DNA from: a virus
Taxonomy: Duplodnaviria; Heunggongvirae; Uroviricota; Caudoviricetes
DNA length: 25,616 nucleotides
Virus record (IMG/VR): IMGVR_UViG_3300029033_000243
Span: 1-25,616 of that record
Reading direction: 5' to 3' (one strand)
Position numbers and translations under genes: made by a program. A model generated the notes under the pieces. That model did not search any database. It was not told the origin of the DNA and saw nothing but the letters and a program-made list of their open reading frames with translations. This document shows, one piece after another, positions 7,895-19,844 of this stretch. How positions within the stretch are numbered: the stretch's first letter is position 1; the number at the start of each line of letters is the position of its first letter.

Positions 7895-8545
7895 TCAGCG
7901 GCTGTCATTGCGCAGTCTGCGCTCCAGCTGCTGTTTGTCTTTTTTCACGCCACAGCGGGGATCGAGCTGTAACGCATGGTTGAGATGGTTAAGGGCGGAC
8001 GCCGGATTGCTTTCACTCAGGACAGCGCCAATCGCTTTATGCAGACGCGCCCGTGACTGGTCCGGCATATCCAGACCGTCTGTCAGCTCCAGCGTCTGCA
8101 GCAACAGATCGGCATCAAAGCCGGTAGTGGCAAGCATTGCGCTCTGTGCCGCGTCTGCCATTTCCTCTGCCAGCACGGTCTGCACGTTGCGGTTACCCAG
8201 CGGCATCACCCAGCCATGACGCAGGGCATGACGCCCGATCTCCAGCGCCCCGGCATAATCTCCGGCATCAATACGCCACAGCATCACGTACATCAGCACG
8301 TCATCCTGTTGAGCGCCTCCGGCAGCCAGAATACCCTCCGCCCAGGCGGCGTACTTCGGCAACAGCTCCACTTTGATTTCCGCTTTTTTGACCGTGGACT
8401 GAACGCCCTTGAGACGGCGGCGGTCTTCCGCCAGTTGCAGCAGCATCAGGTCATAGCCCGACGCGTGGCGAACGCTGCCGCCCTCACGGGCGGCCTGTTC
8501 AGCCTGAACGCGCAGGCGATGCTGCCGTGCGGGACTCAGGCTCAT
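7895..8545 (-). CDS. M: terminase small (endonuclease) subunit gpM
   Basis: 216 aa; position after N and P2 gpM-like sequence. Confidence 0.8.
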   Translation of the reverse strand: MSLSPARQHRLRVQAEQAAREGGSVRHASGYDLMLLQLAEDRRRLKGVQSTVKKAEIKVELLPKYAAWAEGILAAGGAQQDDVLMYVMLWRIDAGDYAGALEIGRHALRHGWVMPLGNRNVQTVLAEEMADAAQSAMLATTGFDADLLLQTLELTDGLDMPDQSRARLHKAIGAVLSESNPASALNHLNHALQLDPRCGVKKDKQQLERRLRNDSR

Positions 8546-10599: not shown

Positions 10600-12366
10600 A
10601 TGAACACCACACTGACACCCGCAGATCTCGATCCCCGTCGGCAGGCCATGCTGCTGTACTTTCAGGGATACCGCGTAGCCCGCATTGCTGAAATGCTGGG
10701 CGAGAAAGTTGCAACCGTTCACAGCTGGAAAAAACGCGACAAGTGGGGTGACTATGGGCCGCTGGATCAGATGCAGCTCACCACCGCCGCACGCTACTGC
10801 CAGCTCATTATGAAGGAGCACAAAGAAGGGAAAGATTTCAAAGAGATTGACCTGCTGGCGCGCCAGTCTGAGCGCCACGCGCGGATCGGCAAGTTTAACA
10901 ATGGCGGCAACGAAGCCGACTTAAATCCTAACGTCGCCAACCGCAACAAAGGCCCGCGCCGTCAGCCGGAAAAAAATGTCTTCACCGATGAACAGATTGA
11001 GAAGCTGGAAGAAATCTTCCATTCCTCCATGTTCAACTACCAGCGCCACTGGTGGGAAGCCGGAAAAACCAACCGCATCCGCAACCTGCTGAAGTCACGC
11101 CAGATCGGCGCGACCTTTTACTTTGCCCGTGAAGCCCTGATTGACGCCCTGCTTACCGGGCGTAACCAGATTTTCCTTTCCGCCAGTAAGGCACAGGCCC
11201 ACGTCTTTAAGCAGTACATCATCGACTTCGCCAAAGAAGTGGAGGTGGAGCTGAAAGGCGATCCGATGGTGCTTCCTAACGGGGCCACGCTTTACTTCCT
11301 CGGCACCAATGCCCGCACGGCCCAGAGTTATCACGGCAACCTGTATCTGGATGAATATTTCTGGATACCGAAATTTCAGGAGCTACGCAAAGTGGCTTCC
11401 GGTATGGCTATTCACAAGAAATGGCGGCAGACCTATTTTTCCACACCATCCAGTCTGACCCACAGTGCTTATCCGTTCTGGTCCGGTGCGCTGTTCAACC
11501 GTGGGCGCAACAAAGCTGACAAGGTGGACATCGACCTGTCCCACAGCAATCTGGCCCCCGGCCTGCTGTGCGCAGACGGGCAATACCGCCAGATAGTCAC
11601 CGTGGAAGATGCGGTGCGCGGCGGCTGTAACCTGTTCGACCTCGACCAGTTGCGCATGGAGTACAGCCCGGACGAATACCAGAACCTGCTGATGTGTGAG
11701 TTCGTGGACGATCTCGCGTCCGTGTTCCCGCTCAGCGAGCTGCAGGCGTGCATGGTGGACAGCTGGGAAGTATGGACCGACTTTCATGCACTGGCGCTGC
11801 GCCCGTTTGGCTGGCGCGAAGTGTGGATCGGTTATGACCCGGCAAAAGGTACGCAGAACGGCGACAGTGCCGGATGCGTGGTGGTGGCTCCGCCAGCCGT
11901 GCCGGGTGGTAAGTTCCGCATTCTTGAGCGTCACCAGTGGCGCGGGATGGACTTCCGCGCCCAGGCTGACGCCATCAAAAAACTCACCGAACAGTACAAC
12001 GTTACGTATATCGGTATCGACTCGACCGGCGTTGGTCACGGGGTTTATGAGAACGTGAAAGCGTTCTTTCCTGCCGTCCGGGAGTTTGTCTACAACCCCA
12101 ACGTTAAAAATGCCCTGGTACTCAAGGCCTACGACATTATCAGCCACCGCCGTCTGGAGTTTGACGCCGGACACACCGACATTGCGCAGTCATTCATGGC
12201 AATCCGTCGCGCAACCACCGCCAGCGGCAACCGCCCGACCTATGAAGCCAGCCGCAGCGAAGAAGCCAGCCACGCCGATCTGGCCTGGGCAACAATGCAC
12301 GCACTGTTTAACGAACCGCTGCAGGGCGAATCCGCCAATACCAGCAATATTGTGGAGATTTTTTGA
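10600..12366 (+). CDS. P: terminase large (ATPase) subunit gpP
   Basis: 588 aa; strong resemblance to P2 gpP along its length; stop overlaps the Q start (ATGA). Confidence 0.9.
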   Translation: MNTTLTPADLDPRRQAMLLYFQGYRVARIAEMLGEKVATVHSWKKRDKWGDYGPLDQMQLTTAARYCQLIMKEHKEGKDFKEIDLLARQSERHARIGKFNNGGNEADLNPNVANRNKGPRRQPEKNVFTDEQIEKLEEIFHSSMFNYQRHWWEAGKTNRIRNLLKSRQIGATFYFAREALIDALLTGRNQIFLSASKAQAHVFKQYIIDFAKEVEVELKGDPMVLPNGATLYFLGTNARTAQSYHGNLYLDEYFWIPKFQELRKVASGMAIHKKWRQTYFSTPSSLTHSAYPFWSGALFNRGRNKADKVDIDLSHSNLAPGLLCADGQYRQIVTVEDAVRGGCNLFDLDQLRMEYSPDEYQNLLMCEFVDDLASVFPLSELQACMVDSWEVWTDFHALALRPFGWREVWIGYDPAKGTQNGDSAGCVVVAPPAVPGGKFRILERHQWRGMDFRAQADAIKKLTEQYNVTYIGIDSTGVGHGVYENVKAFFPAVREFVYNPNVKNALVLKAYDIISHRRLEFDAGHTDIAQSFMAIRRATTASGNRPTYEASRSEEASHADLAWATMHALFNEPLQGESANTSNIVEIF

Positions 12367-13394
12367 TGGGAAAGAGTAAGAAGAACCGCGCTGCGGCGAC
12401 GAAACAGATCCAGCTTAAAAGCCAGACTACAGCCGAAGCATTCAGCTTCGGCGATCCCGTTCCTGTTCTGGACCGCCGAGAACTGCTGGACTATGTGGAA
12501 TGCGTACAGATGGACCGTTGGTATGAGCCGCCCGTCAGCTTTGACGGACTGGCGCGCACCTTCCGCGCTGCCGTGCATCACAGTTCCCCGATTGCAGTGA
12601 AATGCAACATTCTGACCAGTACATTTATCCCGCATCCACTCCTGAGCCAGCAAGCATTCAGCCGATTAGTGCAAGATTATCTGGTATTCGGTAACGCCTA
12701 TCTGGAAAAAAGGACGAACCGATTGGGAGGCATTCTATCGCTGGAGCCATCACTGGCAAAATACACCCGCCGGGGCGTGGATCTCGACACCTACTGGTTT
12801 GTGCAATATGGCATGACCACGCAACCCTACGAGTTCACCAAAGGCAGCATCTTTCACCTGATGGAGCCAGATTTAAACCAAGAGATTTACGGCCTGCCGG
12901 AATACCTGTCCGCCATACCTTCCGCCCTGCTGAATGAGTCCGCAACACTATTCCGCCGGAAGTACTACATCAACGGCAGCCACGCAGGTTTCATCATGTA
13001 CATGACTGACGCCGCGCAGAACCATGAGGACGTGAACAACATCCGCCAGGCCATGAAAAGCGCCAAAGGTCCAGGTAACTTCCGTAACCTGTTTATGTAC
13101 TCACCCAACGGCAAAAAGGATGGCATTCAGATCATCCCACTGTCAGAGGTGGCGGCAAAAGATGAGTTTTTGAACATCAAGAATGTGAGCCGGGATGACA
13201 TGATGGCAGCGCACCGCGTGCCGCCGCAGATGATGGGAATTATGCCTAGCAATGTTGGGGGGTTTGGGGATGTAGAGAAGGCGAGTAAGGTATTTGTAAG
13301 AAATGAATTAACTCCCCTGCAAGCTAAATTTGAGGAGGTTAATCAATTCACTGGATACGAAATAGTGAAATTTAAAAAATATTCTTTTGAGTAA
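12363..13394 (+). CDS. Q: portal (capsid vertex) protein gpQ
   Basis: 343 aa; P2 gpQ-like size and sequence; translationally coupled to P. Confidence 0.9.
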   Translation: MMGKSKKNRAAATKQIQLKSQTTAEAFSFGDPVPVLDRRELLDYVECVQMDRWYEPPVSFDGLARTFRAAVHHSSPIAVKCNILTSTFIPHPLLSQQAFSRLVQDYLVFGNAYLEKRTNRLGGILSLEPSLAKYTRRGVDLDTYWFVQYGMTTQPYEFTKGSIFHLMEPDLNQEIYGLPEYLSAIPSALLNESATLFRRKYYINGSHAGFIMYMTDAAQNHEDVNNIRQAMKSAKGPGNFRNLFMYSPNGKKDGIQIIPLSEVAAKDEFLNIKNVSRDDMMAAHRVPPQMMGIMPSNVGGFGDVEKASKVFVRNELTPLQAKFEEVNQFTGYEIVKFKKYSFE

Positions 13395-13438: not shown

Positions 13439-14014
13439 TTAAGACTCAGCACACAACTCTAAAAAAGAACCTTTATAATAAAAAAGACCAGACTTATCAT
13501 TTAACTCTGTAAATAGCTTACAAGCTCTTTTATGACACTCCAATGCACTGTTTTCATTACGACTAACTATAATTGTTTCTTTCTCCTTATTGTCTGCATC
13601 CAGAAAACTCTTCAATAAGAATTGAATAATGTAATCTTCTTCAGGGAAAGAATACCCAATAAAAATCAGAACATCTGCTTGTCTTAGTTGACTAGATGAT
13701 TTAATAAATGCATTTTTGAAGTATTTATCACTATAATTTTGATCATTAGATGGTAATATTATATTCGGACATGACTTTATATCATTTAATGAGTCGTAAT
13801 CAATTTTAAAGCCATCACCTTCAGCAATAACCTCAAACCCACCATTTAATTTATAGAGTCCAACTCCACCTTTTTTAGGACAAGCGACTTCGTTATTAAT
13901 ATGAATGGGAAAACCACGTAATTGAGTCCTAGCAGGATTGGAGAATTTCAAAACCTTATCAATAACTATATCATAATTTGTAGTTATAATATCCAAAGAT
14001 TTGGAACATTCCAA
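13439..14014 (-). CDS. SIR2-like (NADase-type) effector, C-terminal portion; frame is open upstream to an in-frame TAG at 14132-14134
   Basis: ORF-track piece begins at TTG; carries ITTNYD (nt 13970-13984) and LIFIGYSFPEED (GYS nt 13649-13657) SIR2-type motifs; AT-rich; same frame as the 14132..14527 piece. Confidence 0.6.
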   Translation of the reverse strand: MECSKSLDIITTNYDIVIDKVLKFSNPARTQLRGFPIHINNEVACPKKGGVGLYKLNGGFEVIAEGDGFKIDYDSLNDIKSCPNIILPSNDQNYSDKYFKNAFIKSSSQLRQADVLIFIGYSFPEEDYIIQFLLKSFLDADNKEKETIIVSRNENSALECHKRACKLFTELNDKSGLFYYKGSFLELCAES

Positions 14015-14131
14015 TCCATTAAAAAACCTGATAATATCATCTTTATGTTTTCTTGCAGCACCCTTGCTATCAAGCTTAAATTCACTCGCAGGCAGTAATC
14101 TTACAAATTTATTCTTAATGTAATTCTTGAC

Positions 14132-14527
14132 CTACCGTTCAAAATAGTCCAGAGTCTGTTTATCCAAATGAGATGGTAAAAGACTAGGGTATCTGCGGTA
14201 AACATCAAGATTGTACTTAAAACTCTTAAATACGCCAGCCCTTTCCTTTTCACAAACAGTTTCTGGATGCAGATTCAGATTAAAAGATTCAAATAAAGAG
14301 AAAAATTTAAACTTATCAGAATATAATTCAGCTTCTTCTTTTGACAACGAGAAAACTTGATCACTCAGGGGATATTTTTCATCCCAAGCTTTAGAAAAAC
14401 CAGCACCTAAAAAAACACATATTTTCTTATCGTCTAGCTTCCGATGTAAATCATCGAAGGACTCTATTCCTAGAGAATTACCTTCTTGAGCCACACCATC
14501 ATAGTCAAAGTCTAATTTATCTAACAT
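14132..14527 (-). CDS. SIR2-like effector, N-terminal portion (Rossmann GAGxS motif), ending at an in-frame TAG
   Basis: 131 aa; KICVFLGAGFSKAW (nt 14393-14407) is the SIR2 dinucleotide-binding motif; ATG overlaps the ATPase stop (TAATG), indicating translational coupling. Confidence 0.6.
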   Translation of the reverse strand: MLDKLDFDYDGVAQEGNSLGIESFDDLHRKLDDKKICVFLGAGFSKAWDEKYPLSDQVFSLSKEEAELYSDKFKFFSLFESFNLNLHPETVCEKERAGVFKSFKYNLDVYRRYPSLLPSHLDKQTLDYFER

Positions 14528-15768
14528 TATTTTTCTTTCCCTACCAATCCCAAAAAGGAAGGAAGAACACCAAATTCCCCTCGAAAATACTTAGCCGAAA
14601 CCTTAGCATCTTTCCTAATTGAAAACTTTGATGCATTGATAATATTCGAGGCTTTTTCTTTATCTTTGATAATAATATTTAATTCATCTCTTCTGAAGCA
14701 TTCATCCAATAAAGGAATATTATGAGTAGATAATATAAATTGCATATCATTTTTCTCTAAATGATATGTTAAGATACTTTTAATTAAGGTGGTAGCCAGA
14801 GAATGATGAATAGATGCATCTACTTCATCAACATAAAGCGTAAACCCACAATCAGTTGTCCAAATAACTGCAGCCATGAATGTTAATATATTCATAGTCC
14901 CTTGTGAGAAAAACTCATCCCTCTCACCTGGACCTATGGTTGTAAAACCACCATCAAGATTTTTTATCTTGTAGACAAAGTGATATTTTTTATCACTACC
15001 TACAGGAAGAAAATCGACACCATCAATATGAAGGGGTGCCTTTAAAATAACATCACCATACAAACCTAACAGATTCTTAGCATTATCATTAATGGTTACC
15101 TTCCCATTATCATCTTTAGTCAGTAGTTCTTCAAACTTGGATTCAAAAAACTCCAACCCTTTACCAAAAAATATTTCAGGATTATATGGTAATTGAGATA
15201 CAGCCCAATCTCTAACATTAGTCATTTCTTTGGATTGCAAAGATTTCGCAAATGTTATTACTGCACCAGAATCTTTAATAATTGGTTTTATAAGCGTTTC
15301 ATGCTTTTTGTAAGTTGGTTTTTTAAACTCCAACTCATCTCCATTACGAATAAAAATACAACTTTCTTTTGCTCCTTTCTTCACTTCTCTTGAGTAAAGA
15401 TATTCACTAACAACCTTACCTTCAAAAACAGATATCCCATATCGAAGAAAAGTGTCTTTTTCTTTGTTTACAATAATAACTTCATAAGAGGTCGGACTTA
15501 GTCGATTTTTACTATCGAACATGTACGGTTTATGGAGTTCATTCAATGTGTCACGATGTATAGATCGAGCAAAATCATTTATTGCTCTTATTATTTGAGA
15601 TTTTCCTGCACCATTCCCACCAATAATTGCAGCAAATCGATTAATTCTTAATCCATTGTCTAACAACATAGTATGATCAAGGTGTTCATCACCAGCGGAT
15701 GACACAAAACTTAGAGTCTGCTGGTCTCTAAAGCTCTTATAATTCTCTATCGTGAAGGCAATCAGCAT
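14527..15768 (-). CDS. ABC-type / AAA_21-like ATPase (OLD/PtuA/AriA-like architecture), first gene of the two-gene cargo operon
   Basis: 413 aa; Walker A GGNGAGKS (nt 15598-15621, verified by translation); Walker B/D-loop LYVDEVDASIHH; late STHN motif; N-terminus MLIAFTIENYKSFRD typical of these ATPases; AT-rich. Confidence 0.8.
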   Translation of the reverse strand: MLIAFTIENYKSFRDQQTLSFVSSAGDEHLDHTMLLDNGLRINRFAAIIGGNGAGKSQIIRAINDFARSIHRDTLNELHKPYMFDSKNRLSPTSYEVIIVNKEKDTFLRYGISVFEGKVVSEYLYSREVKKGAKESCIFIRNGDELEFKKPTYKKHETLIKPIIKDSGAVITFAKSLQSKEMTNVRDWAVSQLPYNPEIFFGKGLEFFESKFEELLTKDDNGKVTINDNAKNLLGLYGDVILKAPLHIDGVDFLPVGSDKKYHFVYKIKNLDGGFTTIGPGERDEFFSQGTMNILTFMAAVIWTTDCGFTLYVDEVDASIHHSLATTLIKSILTYHLEKNDMQFILSTHNIPLLDECFRRDELNIIIKDKEKASNIINASKFSIRKDAKVSAKYFRGEFGVLPSFLGLVGKEK

Positions 15769-15912
15769 CTGAAACCCCTAATTTTGTGAAAAAAGTGCAA
15801 AATAGACATGATTAGTGAGTGTAATGCAGACTGAGCTAGGCTGTAAATGAAGATGTGAAGTTATCCTTTAATACTGTTCTTGCTTTCAACCAAATCTCAT
15901 ACTTAGCGCGCG

Positions 15913-15931
15913 CTCGTATCCCCGCCACGCC
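15913..15931 (-). other. putative cos site (19-nt cohesive-end sequence, minus-strand orientation)
   Basis: Reverse complement reads GGCGTGGCGGGGATACGAG; the first 13 nt match the cohesive end I recall for phage 186 (GGCGTGGCGGGGAAAGCAT; P2 has GGCGAGGCGGGGAAAGCAC). Lies downstream of Q, as expected. Confidence 0.5.
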
Positions 15932-15953
15932 TGCCCGCTTTATGCAGTGGTTT

Positions 15954-16054
15954 TCATGCACATGCATGACATGAGCAAAAGCCCGCCAGTTCTGGCGAAT
16001 CTGAGCAAAGACGATCCTCAATCGATCATGCGATTTCATGCAGCATAGTCATGC
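15954..16054. repeat. cluster of TCATGC / CATGCATG short repeats next to cos (possible terminase recognition elements)
   Basis: Read directly: TCATGC at 15954-15959, 16026-16031, 16036-16041 and 16049-16054, plus CATGCATG at 15961-15968. Confidence 0.3.
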
Positions 16055-16310
16055 ACTGTCAAGGAAGTTAAAATCCGTATCTGAATGGCCACTTGAAAAA
16101 CGGATCATACGGGTTTACAAAGATGAATGTTCGCTGTGAACGGGAAGCGGAAGTTAACTTTCAGATAACATAATCCATATGCACGAGAACCTCTAAAATA
16201 GAATGGGACACCTAAGCGGGGTACTTACAACTATTCTTTCCATATTCACAGTTAACACTCTGTTTGGCGTATTTTTATTCAAATAGCAAACACCAATAAA
16301 AGGAGTTTCC

Positions 16311-16646
16311 ATGAACAATATTCCCCCTATACCACAGTTAGGAATTTATGTCTCAAAAATCGATCCCACCCTACGTATCACTGTAACCGATGTTGATATT
16401 GTTGATGGTGAGGATGATTCTCCTGATGATGAATTGTTTTATTTAGTCCACTGGATCGAGGGGGAAGATGAAAGTGATATGACAGCAATGGGATTTGAGC
16501 TAGACCCAGTAGAGTGGCAGGCTTTCGTTGAATCTGAGCAATTAGTGTTTGAGCGTGATCCGTACATGGATTCAATCCCCGAAAATTCAAACTTGGCAAA
16601 GATTCGGGATTTTCTCATGAAGACTAAACAGAATGATCATTCGTAA
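16311..16646 (+). CDS. small very acidic protein of unknown function (111 aa)
   Basis: ATG preceded by AAAGGAG; roughly a quarter of residues are Asp/Glu with few basic residues; lies between cos and the Tum/DinI-like module, where P2 carries tin/old. Confidence 0.55.
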   Translation: MNNIPPIPQLGIYVSKIDPTLRITVTDVDIVDGEDDSPDDELFYLVHWIEGEDESDMTAMGFELDPVEWQAFVESEQLVFERDPYMDSIPENSNLAKIRDFLMKTKQNDHS

Positions 16647-16838: not shown

Positions 16839-17072
16839 TTAATGCAGCCAGCTGTCGTCCTCCCACACCTTCTGCATAATTTTCATCACTTGTTTTCTTT
16901 CTTCATCCAGTTGCAGTCCGGTTAGTTCCACACCGTTAGAGCTACCTTTGCGAATGCGAATTACCGTTTTGGGATACAGGGGGCGCAGATTGCGGTAAAG
17001 CTCGGATTCAAGGGCGTCCAGGGTAGACTGGCTAATCTTCTGCTCTTTATCGATCATTATTTCAATGCGCAT
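16839..17072 (-). CDS. DinI-family protein, Tum-like antirepressor domain
   Basis: From the internal Met (MRIEIMIDKEQ...LDALESEL...VWEDDSWLH), 77 aa aligns by eye with E. coli DinI (MRIEVTIAK...ETWESADDWFVSE). The ORF-track frame extends upstream to 17144, overlapping the preceding ORF. Confidence 0.7.
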   Translation of the reverse strand: MRIEIMIDKEQKISQSTLDALESELYRNLRPLYPKTVIRIRKGSSNGVELTGLQLDEERKQVMKIMQKVWEDDSWLH

Positions 17073-17082
17073 AAAAGTCACC

Positions 17083-17271
17083 TCAGCTGATGACATCCAT
17101 TGAGCGGTTGTATTCGTGGCTTCTGATTTTTGCCATGAGTTCATCAGTCAATTCAGAAACCCACTGCAGAGCCAGCCCCTTCTCTTCATCACTACACTCA
17201 CTAGCCGCTACAAGCTTAAGAAAAAAATCAATGCGCTGGAGCTTCAAAGACTCCAAAAAATAGTCCTGCAT
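17083..17271 (-). CDS. small ORF (62 aa) preceding the DinI-like domain; possibly the N-terminal part of a Tum-like antirepressor
   Basis: ATG with AGGAGG 4 nt upstream; LexA box about 40-60 nt upstream; its 3' end overlaps the DinI-like frame. Confidence 0.5.
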   Translation of the reverse strand: MQDYFLESLKLQRIDFFLKLVAASECSDEEKGLALQWVSELTDELMAKIRSHEYNRSMDVIS

Positions 17272-17423: not shown

Positions 17424-19844
17424 TTAATACAGGTTCCGCCACTTATCATCTTCCTTCAGACGTTGGTTCCGATAGAAGATACGCAGGCCTGCTCCTGACG
17501 GAATACTGCCGCCGCGAAGGAGCAAATCGACTTCTTTCTCGCTGCCATCAAATCCCCTGGACTTCAGTTCATAGACGAGCTGCTGTCGCTGATGGTCTGT
17601 AATTCGCTGTTTGTAGTCTTTACGCCGTTTCGGTTTCACCTGGCGTAACCTTGCAGCCAGTTCCCGGCGCTCTTTTTTGCTCATACTGTGCAGGTAATCG
17701 TGCAACTCCTTGTCATTCATACGGGTAATATCCGTTCTGGAGTCCCCATCAGCTGATTTGTCTTTCCCTTGTTGGTTCAAATTTTCAGCAAGGGGACAGT
17801 TATTGCCACGAGTCCGAGTCCAAGGGGCGCAAGCGCCCTGGTCGGCTGCCGCCTCCTGAACGTCAACGGCTTTACGAACCATTTTCCACTTCACTGCATG
17901 AGTGCAGATCTTGCCCTCTGCAATGGGTGACCAGATGCCATAAATACGAATACCGTGATCGCCATAGGCGGTCGGCTCTTCGTTGATTTCATAAGCGGTT
18001 CTGATGAGGTGATATTTACGGGGAACCAGTACGCCGCCCTGCTTCATGATATAGGTGGCAAAACAACCAGCATCAGCAGCAGCCAGAATGGCATCAAGGC
18101 GCGGGTTATCCAGTACCGGCGCACCTGCTTTTTTGTCATCCTGCTGCCTTGCCGCCTGACCAGCCAGCAATCGCAGTTCACGGTAAGCCTGACGCCCCGG
18201 AATGCCAAAGAAGCGGAATTGCTGAACACGATGCAGAGACGCCCAGGCATTAACGTATTCAGCGTTATCACGCAGAGTTTTACCCGTTTCCTTGCTGATC
18301 TCGCCAGCCAGACCACGCCCGTCAATATTCTTACTGATATATTTCGCGATGTAGCTTGTCGGCGTTCCTTTGCGCGGATTAATCAGCTCAGACTGAAAGC
18401 GCGGCCCCGTGTTATTGCCCAGCTCCTCGCGGTCTTCACGGATGGCAAAGTTACGCAGTAATGCAGTGATGGCGCGGCGGTCTTTTTTGCGCATAAAACA
18501 CAACAGGTGCCAGTGAACTGTACCGTCATGATGCGGCTCAGCCACCCGCACGCCATACCACCGCAATCCGGCTTTGTGCATTGCCTTACGAAATGCAGCA
18601 AACATGCCGACCAGATAATCACTGCTTTGTCTTACCGTCGCATTTGTCCAGGTCGGGTTGGGCCTGCCGTTATTTAGCGTGGAATGGAAACGTGACGGAC
18701 AGGTGATGGTGTAGAAAACGGCGCAGTCACCGCGCATTTCCGCGATAAGCTCCAGACCTTTAACACAGGCCATCATCTCATTGCGGCGATGCGCAGGGTT
18801 GCTGCTGCTGGCGTTTACCACATCCTCCATGTCCAGCGTGTCGCCGTCTTCGTTCACCAGTTCATGAGAACGGAAAAACTCCAGCGACTTACGGCGCTGC
18901 TCACGTTTATGCATCACGGCTTCATAGCTGACATAGGGAGATGCTTTTTTGCTGACAAGGCAGACAGCACGCAACTGCTCTTCCCGCCATTCGCAACGCA
19001 TCTTCCATAATTTCCGATACCACCAGTCGGCGCACAACATACGCGCCAGCGAACCCGGAATGAGTTCATAGGGCACGGGTTTACGGCGGTTTCTTTTCCG
19101 GCGGAGTTGCTCAAACGCAGGTGGGATGACATCCAGTCGCAGGGTTTCTGCTGCCACCCTTTCCCATGTCTTGCGGATTTCTTCTGGCTTAACGTCATCG
19201 GTGGCATACAAATCGCCACAAGCTGCATCAAGGCACATGCTCATATGCGCAGCTACCAGGGTGGACAGGCGTTTCACCTGATCCTGACTCATTTCAGGCA
19301 GGATCAGCAGGCCGTCCAGCCCTTCATGGCTCGCCATAAAGCGAAAAGAAGTGGATAGCTGACTGTCGCGTACATGCTCCAGCCGTTCCAGACATGGCTT
19401 AATCGTCTCACGCAAATAGCGGGAATAAGCCTTTGGCCTGCCCAGGCTGCTGAAGTATTCAATACGTTGCATCAGCGGCTTGCTGATATGGGAAGGCTGG
19501 GCGTTGACGTCAGCCAGAATGACCATGTCTGGATTAAAACGCTGCTGCTCATGCGCCAGCTTTGCCCGGCTAATGAGCTTATCCTGCTCCATTTCGCGCT
19601 GGACAGGATCACGGGATTCATTAAAGAAATAACGCTCCCAGACCTGCTCACTCAGTGCCTCGCGGCGCAGTTGTTCCTGCTCGTTATCGGCAGCATACAG
19701 AGTGATCAGGTTTGAAAGTGCAGACTCCGGCGCAACTTCCGCCGGGTCCAGATAAGGGTTAATGGCCTTTTTCGGGCCGTTCCATGAAAATGATGCGGCG
19801 GCCTCGTTAAAGCCGCTAGAGTTGCTCATATCGTCATGACTCAT
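17424..19844 (-). CDS. A: replication initiation protein gpA (rolling-circle endonuclease)
   Basis: 806 aa; HUH-type motif [11 protein letters not shown]2/186 gpA-like; start overlaps the Dam stop (ATGA). Confidence 0.85.

Follow-up and report, generated by a model that had tools for sequence, protein, structure and literature searches.

The chromosomes of the P2-family phages P2, 186 and PSP3 end in 19-nt, GC-rich 5′ cohesive sequences with a common GGCG(A/T)GGCGGGGA start. According to the annotated ends, which we took from NC_001895, NC_001317 and NC_005340, P2 cosL is GGCGAGGCGGGGAAAGCAC, the 186 cos is GGCGTGGCGGGGAAAGCAT and the PSP3 end is identical to that of 186. In P2 and 186, the ends are annotated between the portal gene, Q, and the genes downstream of the replication gene, A, and the 186 record states of cos 'top strand cut at 5' end and bottom strand cut at 3' end'. 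P2 has been reported to package monomeric circles. In phage lambda, cos comprises cosQ, cosN and cosB, with R sites and a site for the integration host factor (IHF), and has a 12-nt overhang. The satellite P4 has nothing but cos in common with P2, and the terminase of its helper packages it (PMC9122126). We analysed a 25,616-nt stretch of viral DNA, positions 1 to 25,616 of IMG/VR record IMGVR_UViG_3300029033_000243 (hereafter the window), in which a first-pass annotation had singled out a minus-strand 19-mer at 15913–15931 as resembling the P2 and 186 ends. From sequence comparison, we judge with a probability of about 85% that the 19-mer and its surroundings are the cos packaging site of a P2-family, Fels-2-like prophage, in which the adjoining repeats are read as cosB-like terminase sites. 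The feature is an ordinary one of an already known kind: a P2-family cos with conserved repeats, situated beside a known cargo hotspot.

The plus strand of the window reads CTCGTATCCCCGCCACGCC at 15913–15931. Its reverse complement, GGCGTGGCGGGGATACGAG, is the proposed cohesive-end sequence (cosN) on the minus strand, assigned by homology to the annotated P2 and 186 ends and by the cos annotation of Salmonella phage SEN8. Alignment with the database records bore out the resemblance: the window 19-mer is identical to the 186 end at 15 of 19 positions, including all of the first 13, and to the P2 end at 14 of 19. Like the ends of P2, 186 and PSP3, it is 19 nt long, GC-rich and built on a GGCG(A/T)GGCGGGG core. 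It differs in the last six bases of the overhang, which are TACGAG in the window and AAGCAT or AAGCAC in P2, 186 and PSP3. Closer counterparts were found elsewhere. The 19-mer is the same, in every letter, as the cos annotated for SEN8, a Fels-2-like phage (PMC5427200), and is identical to the cos 19-mer of Fels-2; it also matches the deduced cohesive end of Stenotrophomonas phage Smp131 at 18 of 19 positions (PMC3931495). These matches, together with the flanking core and the location described below, uphold the assignment of the site as a cos of the P2/186 type.

To place the 19-mer among related sequences, IMG/VR was scanned for cos sites using GGGCRGGCGWGGCGGGGA as the query. The scan yielded 125 instances, among which the window 19-mer was the commonest allele (46/125). 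A 36-mer consisting of AAAGCGGGCA, the 19-mer and CGCGCGC occurred in 25 stretches from 24 species-representative Enterobacterales genomes, among them those of Klebsiella, Enterobacter, Citrobacter, Raoultella, Serratia and Pantoea. The predicted nicks fall between 15931 and 15932 on the minus strand and between 15912 and 15913 on the plus strand, and would generate 5′ overhangs of 19 nt. In the records of Fels-2, MLG42, SopEPhi and RE-2010, the four that we inspected, cos is not annotated.

The 19-mer is part of a conserved island of ∼153 bp (15906–16058, minus strand), as delimited by blastn coverage and pairwise identity. A blastn search with 15780–16300 against 50,697 phage records matched 85 records, and the coverage was confined to approximately 15894–16057. 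Offsets are given hereafter in P2 orientation, counted from the first cohesive-end base. Pairwise identity in 113 unique cos regions averaged 0.83 between −30 and +26, versus 0.27–0.29 in the outer 100-bp flanks on both sides. On the Q side, conservation stops 7 bp past the cohesive end, after a (Y)GCGCGC motif (15906–15912, minus strand) whose GCGCGC is invariant in a seven-way alignment and conserved at ≥90% across 116 representatives. On the gene-A side, conservation extends to about −127 (window position 16058). Directly adjoining the cohesive end on this side is a conserved ATAAAGCGGGCA (15932–15943, minus strand; column conservation ∼0.9) that aligns with P2, 186, P4 and phiCTX.

Every column of the island that is conserved at ≥90% is intact in the window. 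The conserved core, TGCAT-AAAACC followed by AAAGCGGGC(A/G), the 19-mer and (Y)GCGCGC, is present in full, and it aligns with P2, 186, PSP3, P4, Fels-2 and phiCTX. P2, 186 and PSP3 likewise have GCGCGC beyond the end, and a (T/G)(A/G)AAG(C/T)GGGC(A/G) box and TGCAT(T/G)AAAACC before it. A scan of 15600–16500 against Rfam detected no RNA family; the sole match was to a long non-coding RNA at chance level (E = 0.3). Across the Fels-2-like phages SEN8, Fels-2, SopEPhi, RE-2010, 4LV2017 and MLG42, the island is 85–91% identical to that of the window. In a comparison of 15894–16057, identity was 85% to the closest relatives of the phage backbone (4LV2017 and the Kp48xx phages, with backbones at 95%) and 89–91% to 813R9, Kp4845-2 and Yersinia phage MLG42. 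This disparity points to mosaic exchange in the neighbourhood of cos.

The gene-A side of the island carries short repeats. The first-pass annotation had listed four TCATGC copies and a palindrome, CATGCATG, near the 19-mer, and had proposed that they might be terminase-binding elements. We recovered these elements at the expected places: the plus strand has TCATGC starting at 15954, 16026, 16036 and 16049, the minus strand holds a fifth copy at 15964–15969, and CATGCATG lies at 15961–15968. The repeats are 23–123 bp from the 19-mer. TCATGC was not enriched over the window as a whole (21 copies versus 23 expected). Its clustering is nevertheless not attributable to chance, five copies within 110 bp having arisen in 1 of 2000 first-order Markov simulations. 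While the copies are real and clustered, the hexamer did not hold as the repeat unit. The conserved unit is TGCAT(G/T) in P2 orientation, or ATGCA on the plus strand of the window, and one slot in the window holds CGCAT.

More specifically, the window has TGCAT(G) at −124, −111 and −29, CGCAT at −101 and an inverted copy at −36. The proximal pair (15949–15969, minus strand) comprises TGCATGAAAACC at −29 (15949–15960) and an inverted TCATGCA at −38 to −32 (15963–15969), which together form a TCATGCA-N2-TGCATGA palindrome that includes CATGCATG. The distal cluster (16026–16056, minus strand) consists of three direct repeats: CGCATGA at −101 (16026–16032), CTGCATGA at −111 (16036–16043) and GTGCATGA at −124 (16049–16056). 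In the 113 unique cos regions, TGCAT occupied −29 in 109 and the inverted copy was present in 75. The GCAT core was found at −124, −111, −101 and −29 in 78, 102, 108 and 111 of these regions, respectively, as compared with ∼0.6% expected per slot. Similarly, the full TGCAT/ATGCA word filled the five slots in 60–96% of the regions, versus ∼0.6% expected. In an analysis of 114 unique cos regions, TGCAT was the top 5-mer between −150 and −1, with peaks solely near −124, −111, −101 and −29, and it was nearly missing from the remainder of the ±400 bp around cos. No TGCAT slot was found on the Q side of cosN in the 113 regions. The layout is thus cosB-like, with short repeated words on one side of cosN at fixed distances from it.

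The same offsets occur in P2, 186, PSP3, Fels-2 and ∼110 other phages, as well as in 22 named Enterobacterales genomes. In P2, 186 and PSP3, the three outer TGCAT repeats lie at approximately −124, −111 and −101, although P2 lacks the inverted proximal copy. P4 has TGCAT at −124, −111, −101 and −29, and nine P4-like satellite loci (Psu identity 27–99%, no portal gene) keep the P4 offsets, except that one of them has its third copy at −83. Of all the comparisons, that with P4 is the strongest. P4 and its relatives thereby match the window in TGCAT offsets, core and palindrome position. By contrast with the window, these satellites have no terminase or portal of their own; psu and the int-side hotspot flank their cos and, beyond cos, they have no other homology with the helper.

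We also performed a second scan with non-enteric cos alleles, which returned 51 P2-like loci with portal identities of 46–89%. In the distant lineages (Q identity 46–70%), the layout is kept and the repeat words differ. Many of them have three distal repeats, one or two proximal repeats with an A-run, and the cohesive end, often with a GC-rich palindrome between the clusters. The alternative words are TGCACAA (the GGCGAGGCGGGGGAGCAAG group), CCGCAGG (phiCTX-like), TGCATAA (the GGTGGGGCGGGGTCACAAC group) and GGATC (another group). Altered words were seen among IMG/VR loci L134–L251 (for example L171, L201 and L209; L140, L183 and L239; L204 and L236; L136, L211 and L245). phiCTX itself shows this order, running from three distal repeats through a palindrome to two proximal copies and then cosN, and carries cargo between cos and Q. 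Its record annotates R3–R6 repeats ('R4, R5, R6 repeats' across cos), IHF sites upstream and ctx between cosL and Q. It differs from the window in having a 21-nt overhang and in its repeat word, (C/T)GCAG(G/A) rather than TGCAT.

A word that varies by lineage within a constant geometry fits a recognition site for a co-evolving protein. The first-pass proposal concerning terminase is plausible in this light: the offsets are fixed in phages and satellites, and other words are swapped into the same layout. As for packaging specificity, P4-like satellites share the word and distant lineages differ, the lineage differences being confounded with phylogeny. We tentatively propose, at slightly less than even odds, that the repeats are a lineage-specific terminase 'address code' in the Peduoviridae. 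Such a code would consist of three distal and one or two proximal copies, in clusters ∼72 bp apart, and would set which phages and P4-like satellites each helper packages.

The location of the site agrees with its assignment. The window is a Fels-2/4LV2017-like P2-family prophage whose orientation is reversed with respect to the P2 map, with ∼95% identity over 72% of its length to Klebsiella phages, 4LV2017 and KP12 among them, and to Escherichia phage vB_EcoM-813R9. According to Pfam, genes encoding gpM, gpP and gpQ flank cos on one side, and a DinI/Tum-like gene and gene A on the other. The gpM-like small terminase subunit (7895–8545, minus strand; PF05944 Phage_term_smal, E = 2.5e-40) is a candidate binder of the repeats. 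The gpP-like large terminase (10600–12366, plus strand; Terminase_6N, Terminase_6C and Terminase_5) is the putative nuclease/ATPase that nicks cosN. Residues 11–68 of gpP (window 10600–10810) account for the Terminase_5 match (PF06056), a helix-turn-helix-type domain, and gave a weak match to σ70 region 4 (Sigma70_r4_2). This domain raises the possibility that the large subunit itself helps to recognize cos. The gpQ-like portal gene (Phage_portal) is at 12363–13394 on the plus strand, the DinI/Tum-like gene at 16839–17144 on the minus strand, and gene A, also assigned by Pfam, at 17424–19844 on the minus strand. The DinI/Tum-like gene hints at induction through the SOS response. All four of gpM, gpP, gpQ and gpA are encoded by full-length open reading frames (ORFs) with strong family matches. 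cos therefore lies between the portal gene and the replication gene, in synteny with P2, 186 and Fels-2. On the gene-A side, a 111-amino-acid ORF (16311–16646, plus strand) is directed away from cos; it had no match in Pfam or PADLOC. As it takes the place that old and tin have in P2, it could be additional cargo of the hotspot.

Between the two repeat clusters is a GC-rich palindrome, CGCCAG-NN-CTGGCG (15984–15997; wider context 15972–16009). It is flanked by a direct repeat, TGAGCAAA, at 15972–15979 and 16002–16009 and, followed by CTTTTGC on the minus strand, looks like an intrinsic terminator. Inverted repeats ≥6 bp long were present at this position in 50 of 125 cos regions, versus 23 of 345 control segments. 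Different palindromes occupy the same place in P4, phiCTX and several IMG/VR loci, and P2 has none. We therefore rejected the palindrome as a universal cos element: it is enriched, but many cos regions, that of P2 included, lack it. Two GATC (Dam) sites, at 16013–16016 and 16024–16027, lie between the palindrome and the distal repeats. Among 119 unique cos regions, 47 contain a GATC pair within −100 to −70 and 62 contain no GATC in that interval.

On its Q side, cos is adjoined by an AT-rich cargo cassette (13439–15768, minus strand) with a GC content of 29–34%, versus 51–58% in the backbone. According to Pfam and PADLOC, it encodes an ABC/AbiLi-like, AAA_21 ATPase (14527–15768, minus strand) and a SIR2-domain protein (14527 down to 13439, minus strand). 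The SIR2 gene is a continuous frame of ∼362 codons with a single in-frame TAG after codon 131 (14132–14134), at which the ORF list splits it into pieces of 131 and 191 amino acids. The TAG could reflect a pseudogene, a sequencing error or read-through, and it renders the activity of the cassette doubtful. A promoter-like site belonging to the cassette (15847–15818) is directed away from cos. Neither the phage nor the complete E. coli collections contained a match to the cargo DNA, and the GTDB species genomes contained none to the exact cargo–cos junction.

The cassette accounts for most of the 2518 bp between the stop codon of Q (13394) and cos. In a survey of 92 related loci with a detectable Q, the spacing was 161–226 bp in 42, as in P2 and 186, which have no cargo here, and inserts of 0.39–4.4 kb were present in 50. 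Fels-2, RE-2010, 813R9 and phiCTX, the last with its ctx toxin gene, carry other cargo in this interval. The cargo of the window differs from that of the Fels-2-like phages and was found in none of them. In P2-like phages, the cos-proximal region between gpA and gpQ has been described as a defence hotspot (Rousset et al. 2022, PMC9122126), and the cosL–Q interval had earlier been described as a site of foreign genes (Dodd & Egan 1996 and Nakayama 1999, as cited in PMC5694545). The window conforms to this description in having variable genes with defence-type domains and foreign base composition directly beside cos; it departs from it in that its ATPase–SIR2 combination was absent from the phage and E. 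coli collections and the SIR2 frame is interrupted. The first-pass annotation had held that the cassette was inserted between Q and the site without disrupting the packaging signal. The conserved block is indeed untouched, and the claim is further supported by the inserts in 50 of 92 loci, by the cargo of other phages and by the published hotspot. Foreign cargo can abut cos directly, because no more than ∼7 bp past the cohesive end are required on the Q side.

By homology to P2 and 186, a mechanism can be proposed for the site. During lytic growth, the terminase, comprising the gpP nuclease/ATPase and gpM, would recognize the ∼153-bp island at 15906–16058. Two nicks 19 nt apart would then leave the virion chromosome linear, with 5′ overhangs that are complementary and carry GGCGTGGCGGGGATACGAG. 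Recognition would take place mainly on the gene-A side, through the AAAGCGGGCA box, the proximal TGCATGAAAACC with its inverted partner and the three TGCAT(G) repeats ∼72 bp further out. As predicted cosB-like sites for a terminase subunit, the repeats would direct the nuclease to cosN and determine packaging specificity. Their putative reader is, in the first place, gpM and, in the second, the N-terminal helix-turn-helix of gpP; searches of the PDB with the gpM and gpP sequences returned no informative relative. The gap between the clusters corresponds to approximately seven helical turns and, together with the variable palindrome, suggests a complex in which the DNA is bent or wrapped. By analogy with lambda, the gene-A-side end would be the first to enter the capsid if the repeats act as the initiation arm. 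The cassette would lie at the far left terminus of the virion DNA. The likeness to lambda is one of analogy only: in both cases there is a staggered nicking site with one-sided short repeats proposed to bind terminase, but the sites share no sequence similarity and the small terminase families are unrelated. Searches of the accessible literature returned nothing usable on TGCAT at cos or in connection with terminase, or on the orientation of the P2 DNA ends in the head.

Some observations weigh against assigning the entire island to terminase. Secondary citations give a conserved cos core of just 55 bp, roughly −29 to +25, on which basis the distal cluster could be non-essential or have just a stimulatory role. 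The old-tin transcript of P2 begins at 33424/33426, and the −35 region of its promoter lies on the outermost distal repeat. In the window, a weak σ70-like match, TAGTCA-17-TAAAAT (16046–16074), overlaps the same repeat and faces the ORF at 16311–16646. These overlaps make a transcriptional role possible for part of the distal cluster. Carried further, they would support a reading in which the cos call is right but the cluster at 16026–16056 is a promoter/operator of lysogenic-conversion genes, the terminase using only the ∼55-bp core (∼15906–15960). We consider this improbable. The distal offsets are unchanged in 186, PSP3 and P4, whose neighbouring genes (orf97, gp38 and psu, respectively) point towards cos, and they are kept in the nine P4-like satellites. 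Moreover, the genes beyond the distal cluster are unrelated between phages (flank identity 0.27), and the conservation of a promoter for non-homologous cargo is therefore unlikely. A different question is which protein reads the repeats. The helix-turn-helix at residues 11–68 of gpP could bind them in place of gpM, or a host architectural protein could bend the ∼72-bp spacer. The latter would be in keeping with the IHF sites annotated upstream of the cos repeats in phiCTX and with the lineage-variable palindrome between the clusters; a host factor would nonetheless not account for a repeat word that differs between phage lineages in related hosts. Overall, we regard a reader other than gpM as unlikely, though less so than the promoter.

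Two further alternatives concern the site as a whole. The prophage could be defective elsewhere, and its cos could be a relic that has kept its sequence and lost its use. The in-frame stop in the SIR2 gene is compatible with decay, and the window shows part of a prophage rather than the whole. Set against this are the intact state of all highly conserved columns of the island, the full-length gpM, gpP, gpQ and gpA, and a backbone 95% identical to isolated Klebsiella phages, on which we hold a relic to be quite improbable. The conservation might instead reflect a protein, as an ORF of 67 amino acids runs across cos on the minus strand (15836–16039). Small 'hypothetical protein' features are annotated over the cos block in MLG42, ST15-OXA48phi14.1 and other records; they are probably annotation artefacts. 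The 67-amino-acid ORF had no family match, and conservation ends inside it at ∼15906, beyond which the sequence is unrelated between phages. Because it lacks a family match and runs from conserved into non-conserved DNA, the ORF is probably spurious, and we rejected it as a gene. The conserved pattern is one of repeat blocks rather than codon periodicity, and no gene is annotated across the site in the P2 and 186 records. A coding explanation for the conservation is accordingly hardly credible. Of these readings, we retain that of a P2-family cos with cosB-like repeats.

This reading settles the annotation of the locus: the island contains the predicted ends of the virion chromosome, and the ATPase–SIR2 cassette would be the left-terminal cargo of a P2-like phage, at a hotspot already described. 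The reading likewise accounts for a conserved non-coding block mis-annotated as a small gene in some records. What goes beyond the routine is the repeat layout, which is family-wide, employs a lineage-dependent word and is copied by P4-like satellites. If the repeats are the address that terminase reads, they could be used to predict helper–satellite pairs and to design P2/P4-based cosmids and transducing particles. Should the address code prove true, the compatibility of a helper with its satellites would be readable from the repeat word and could be re-engineered by swapping that word.

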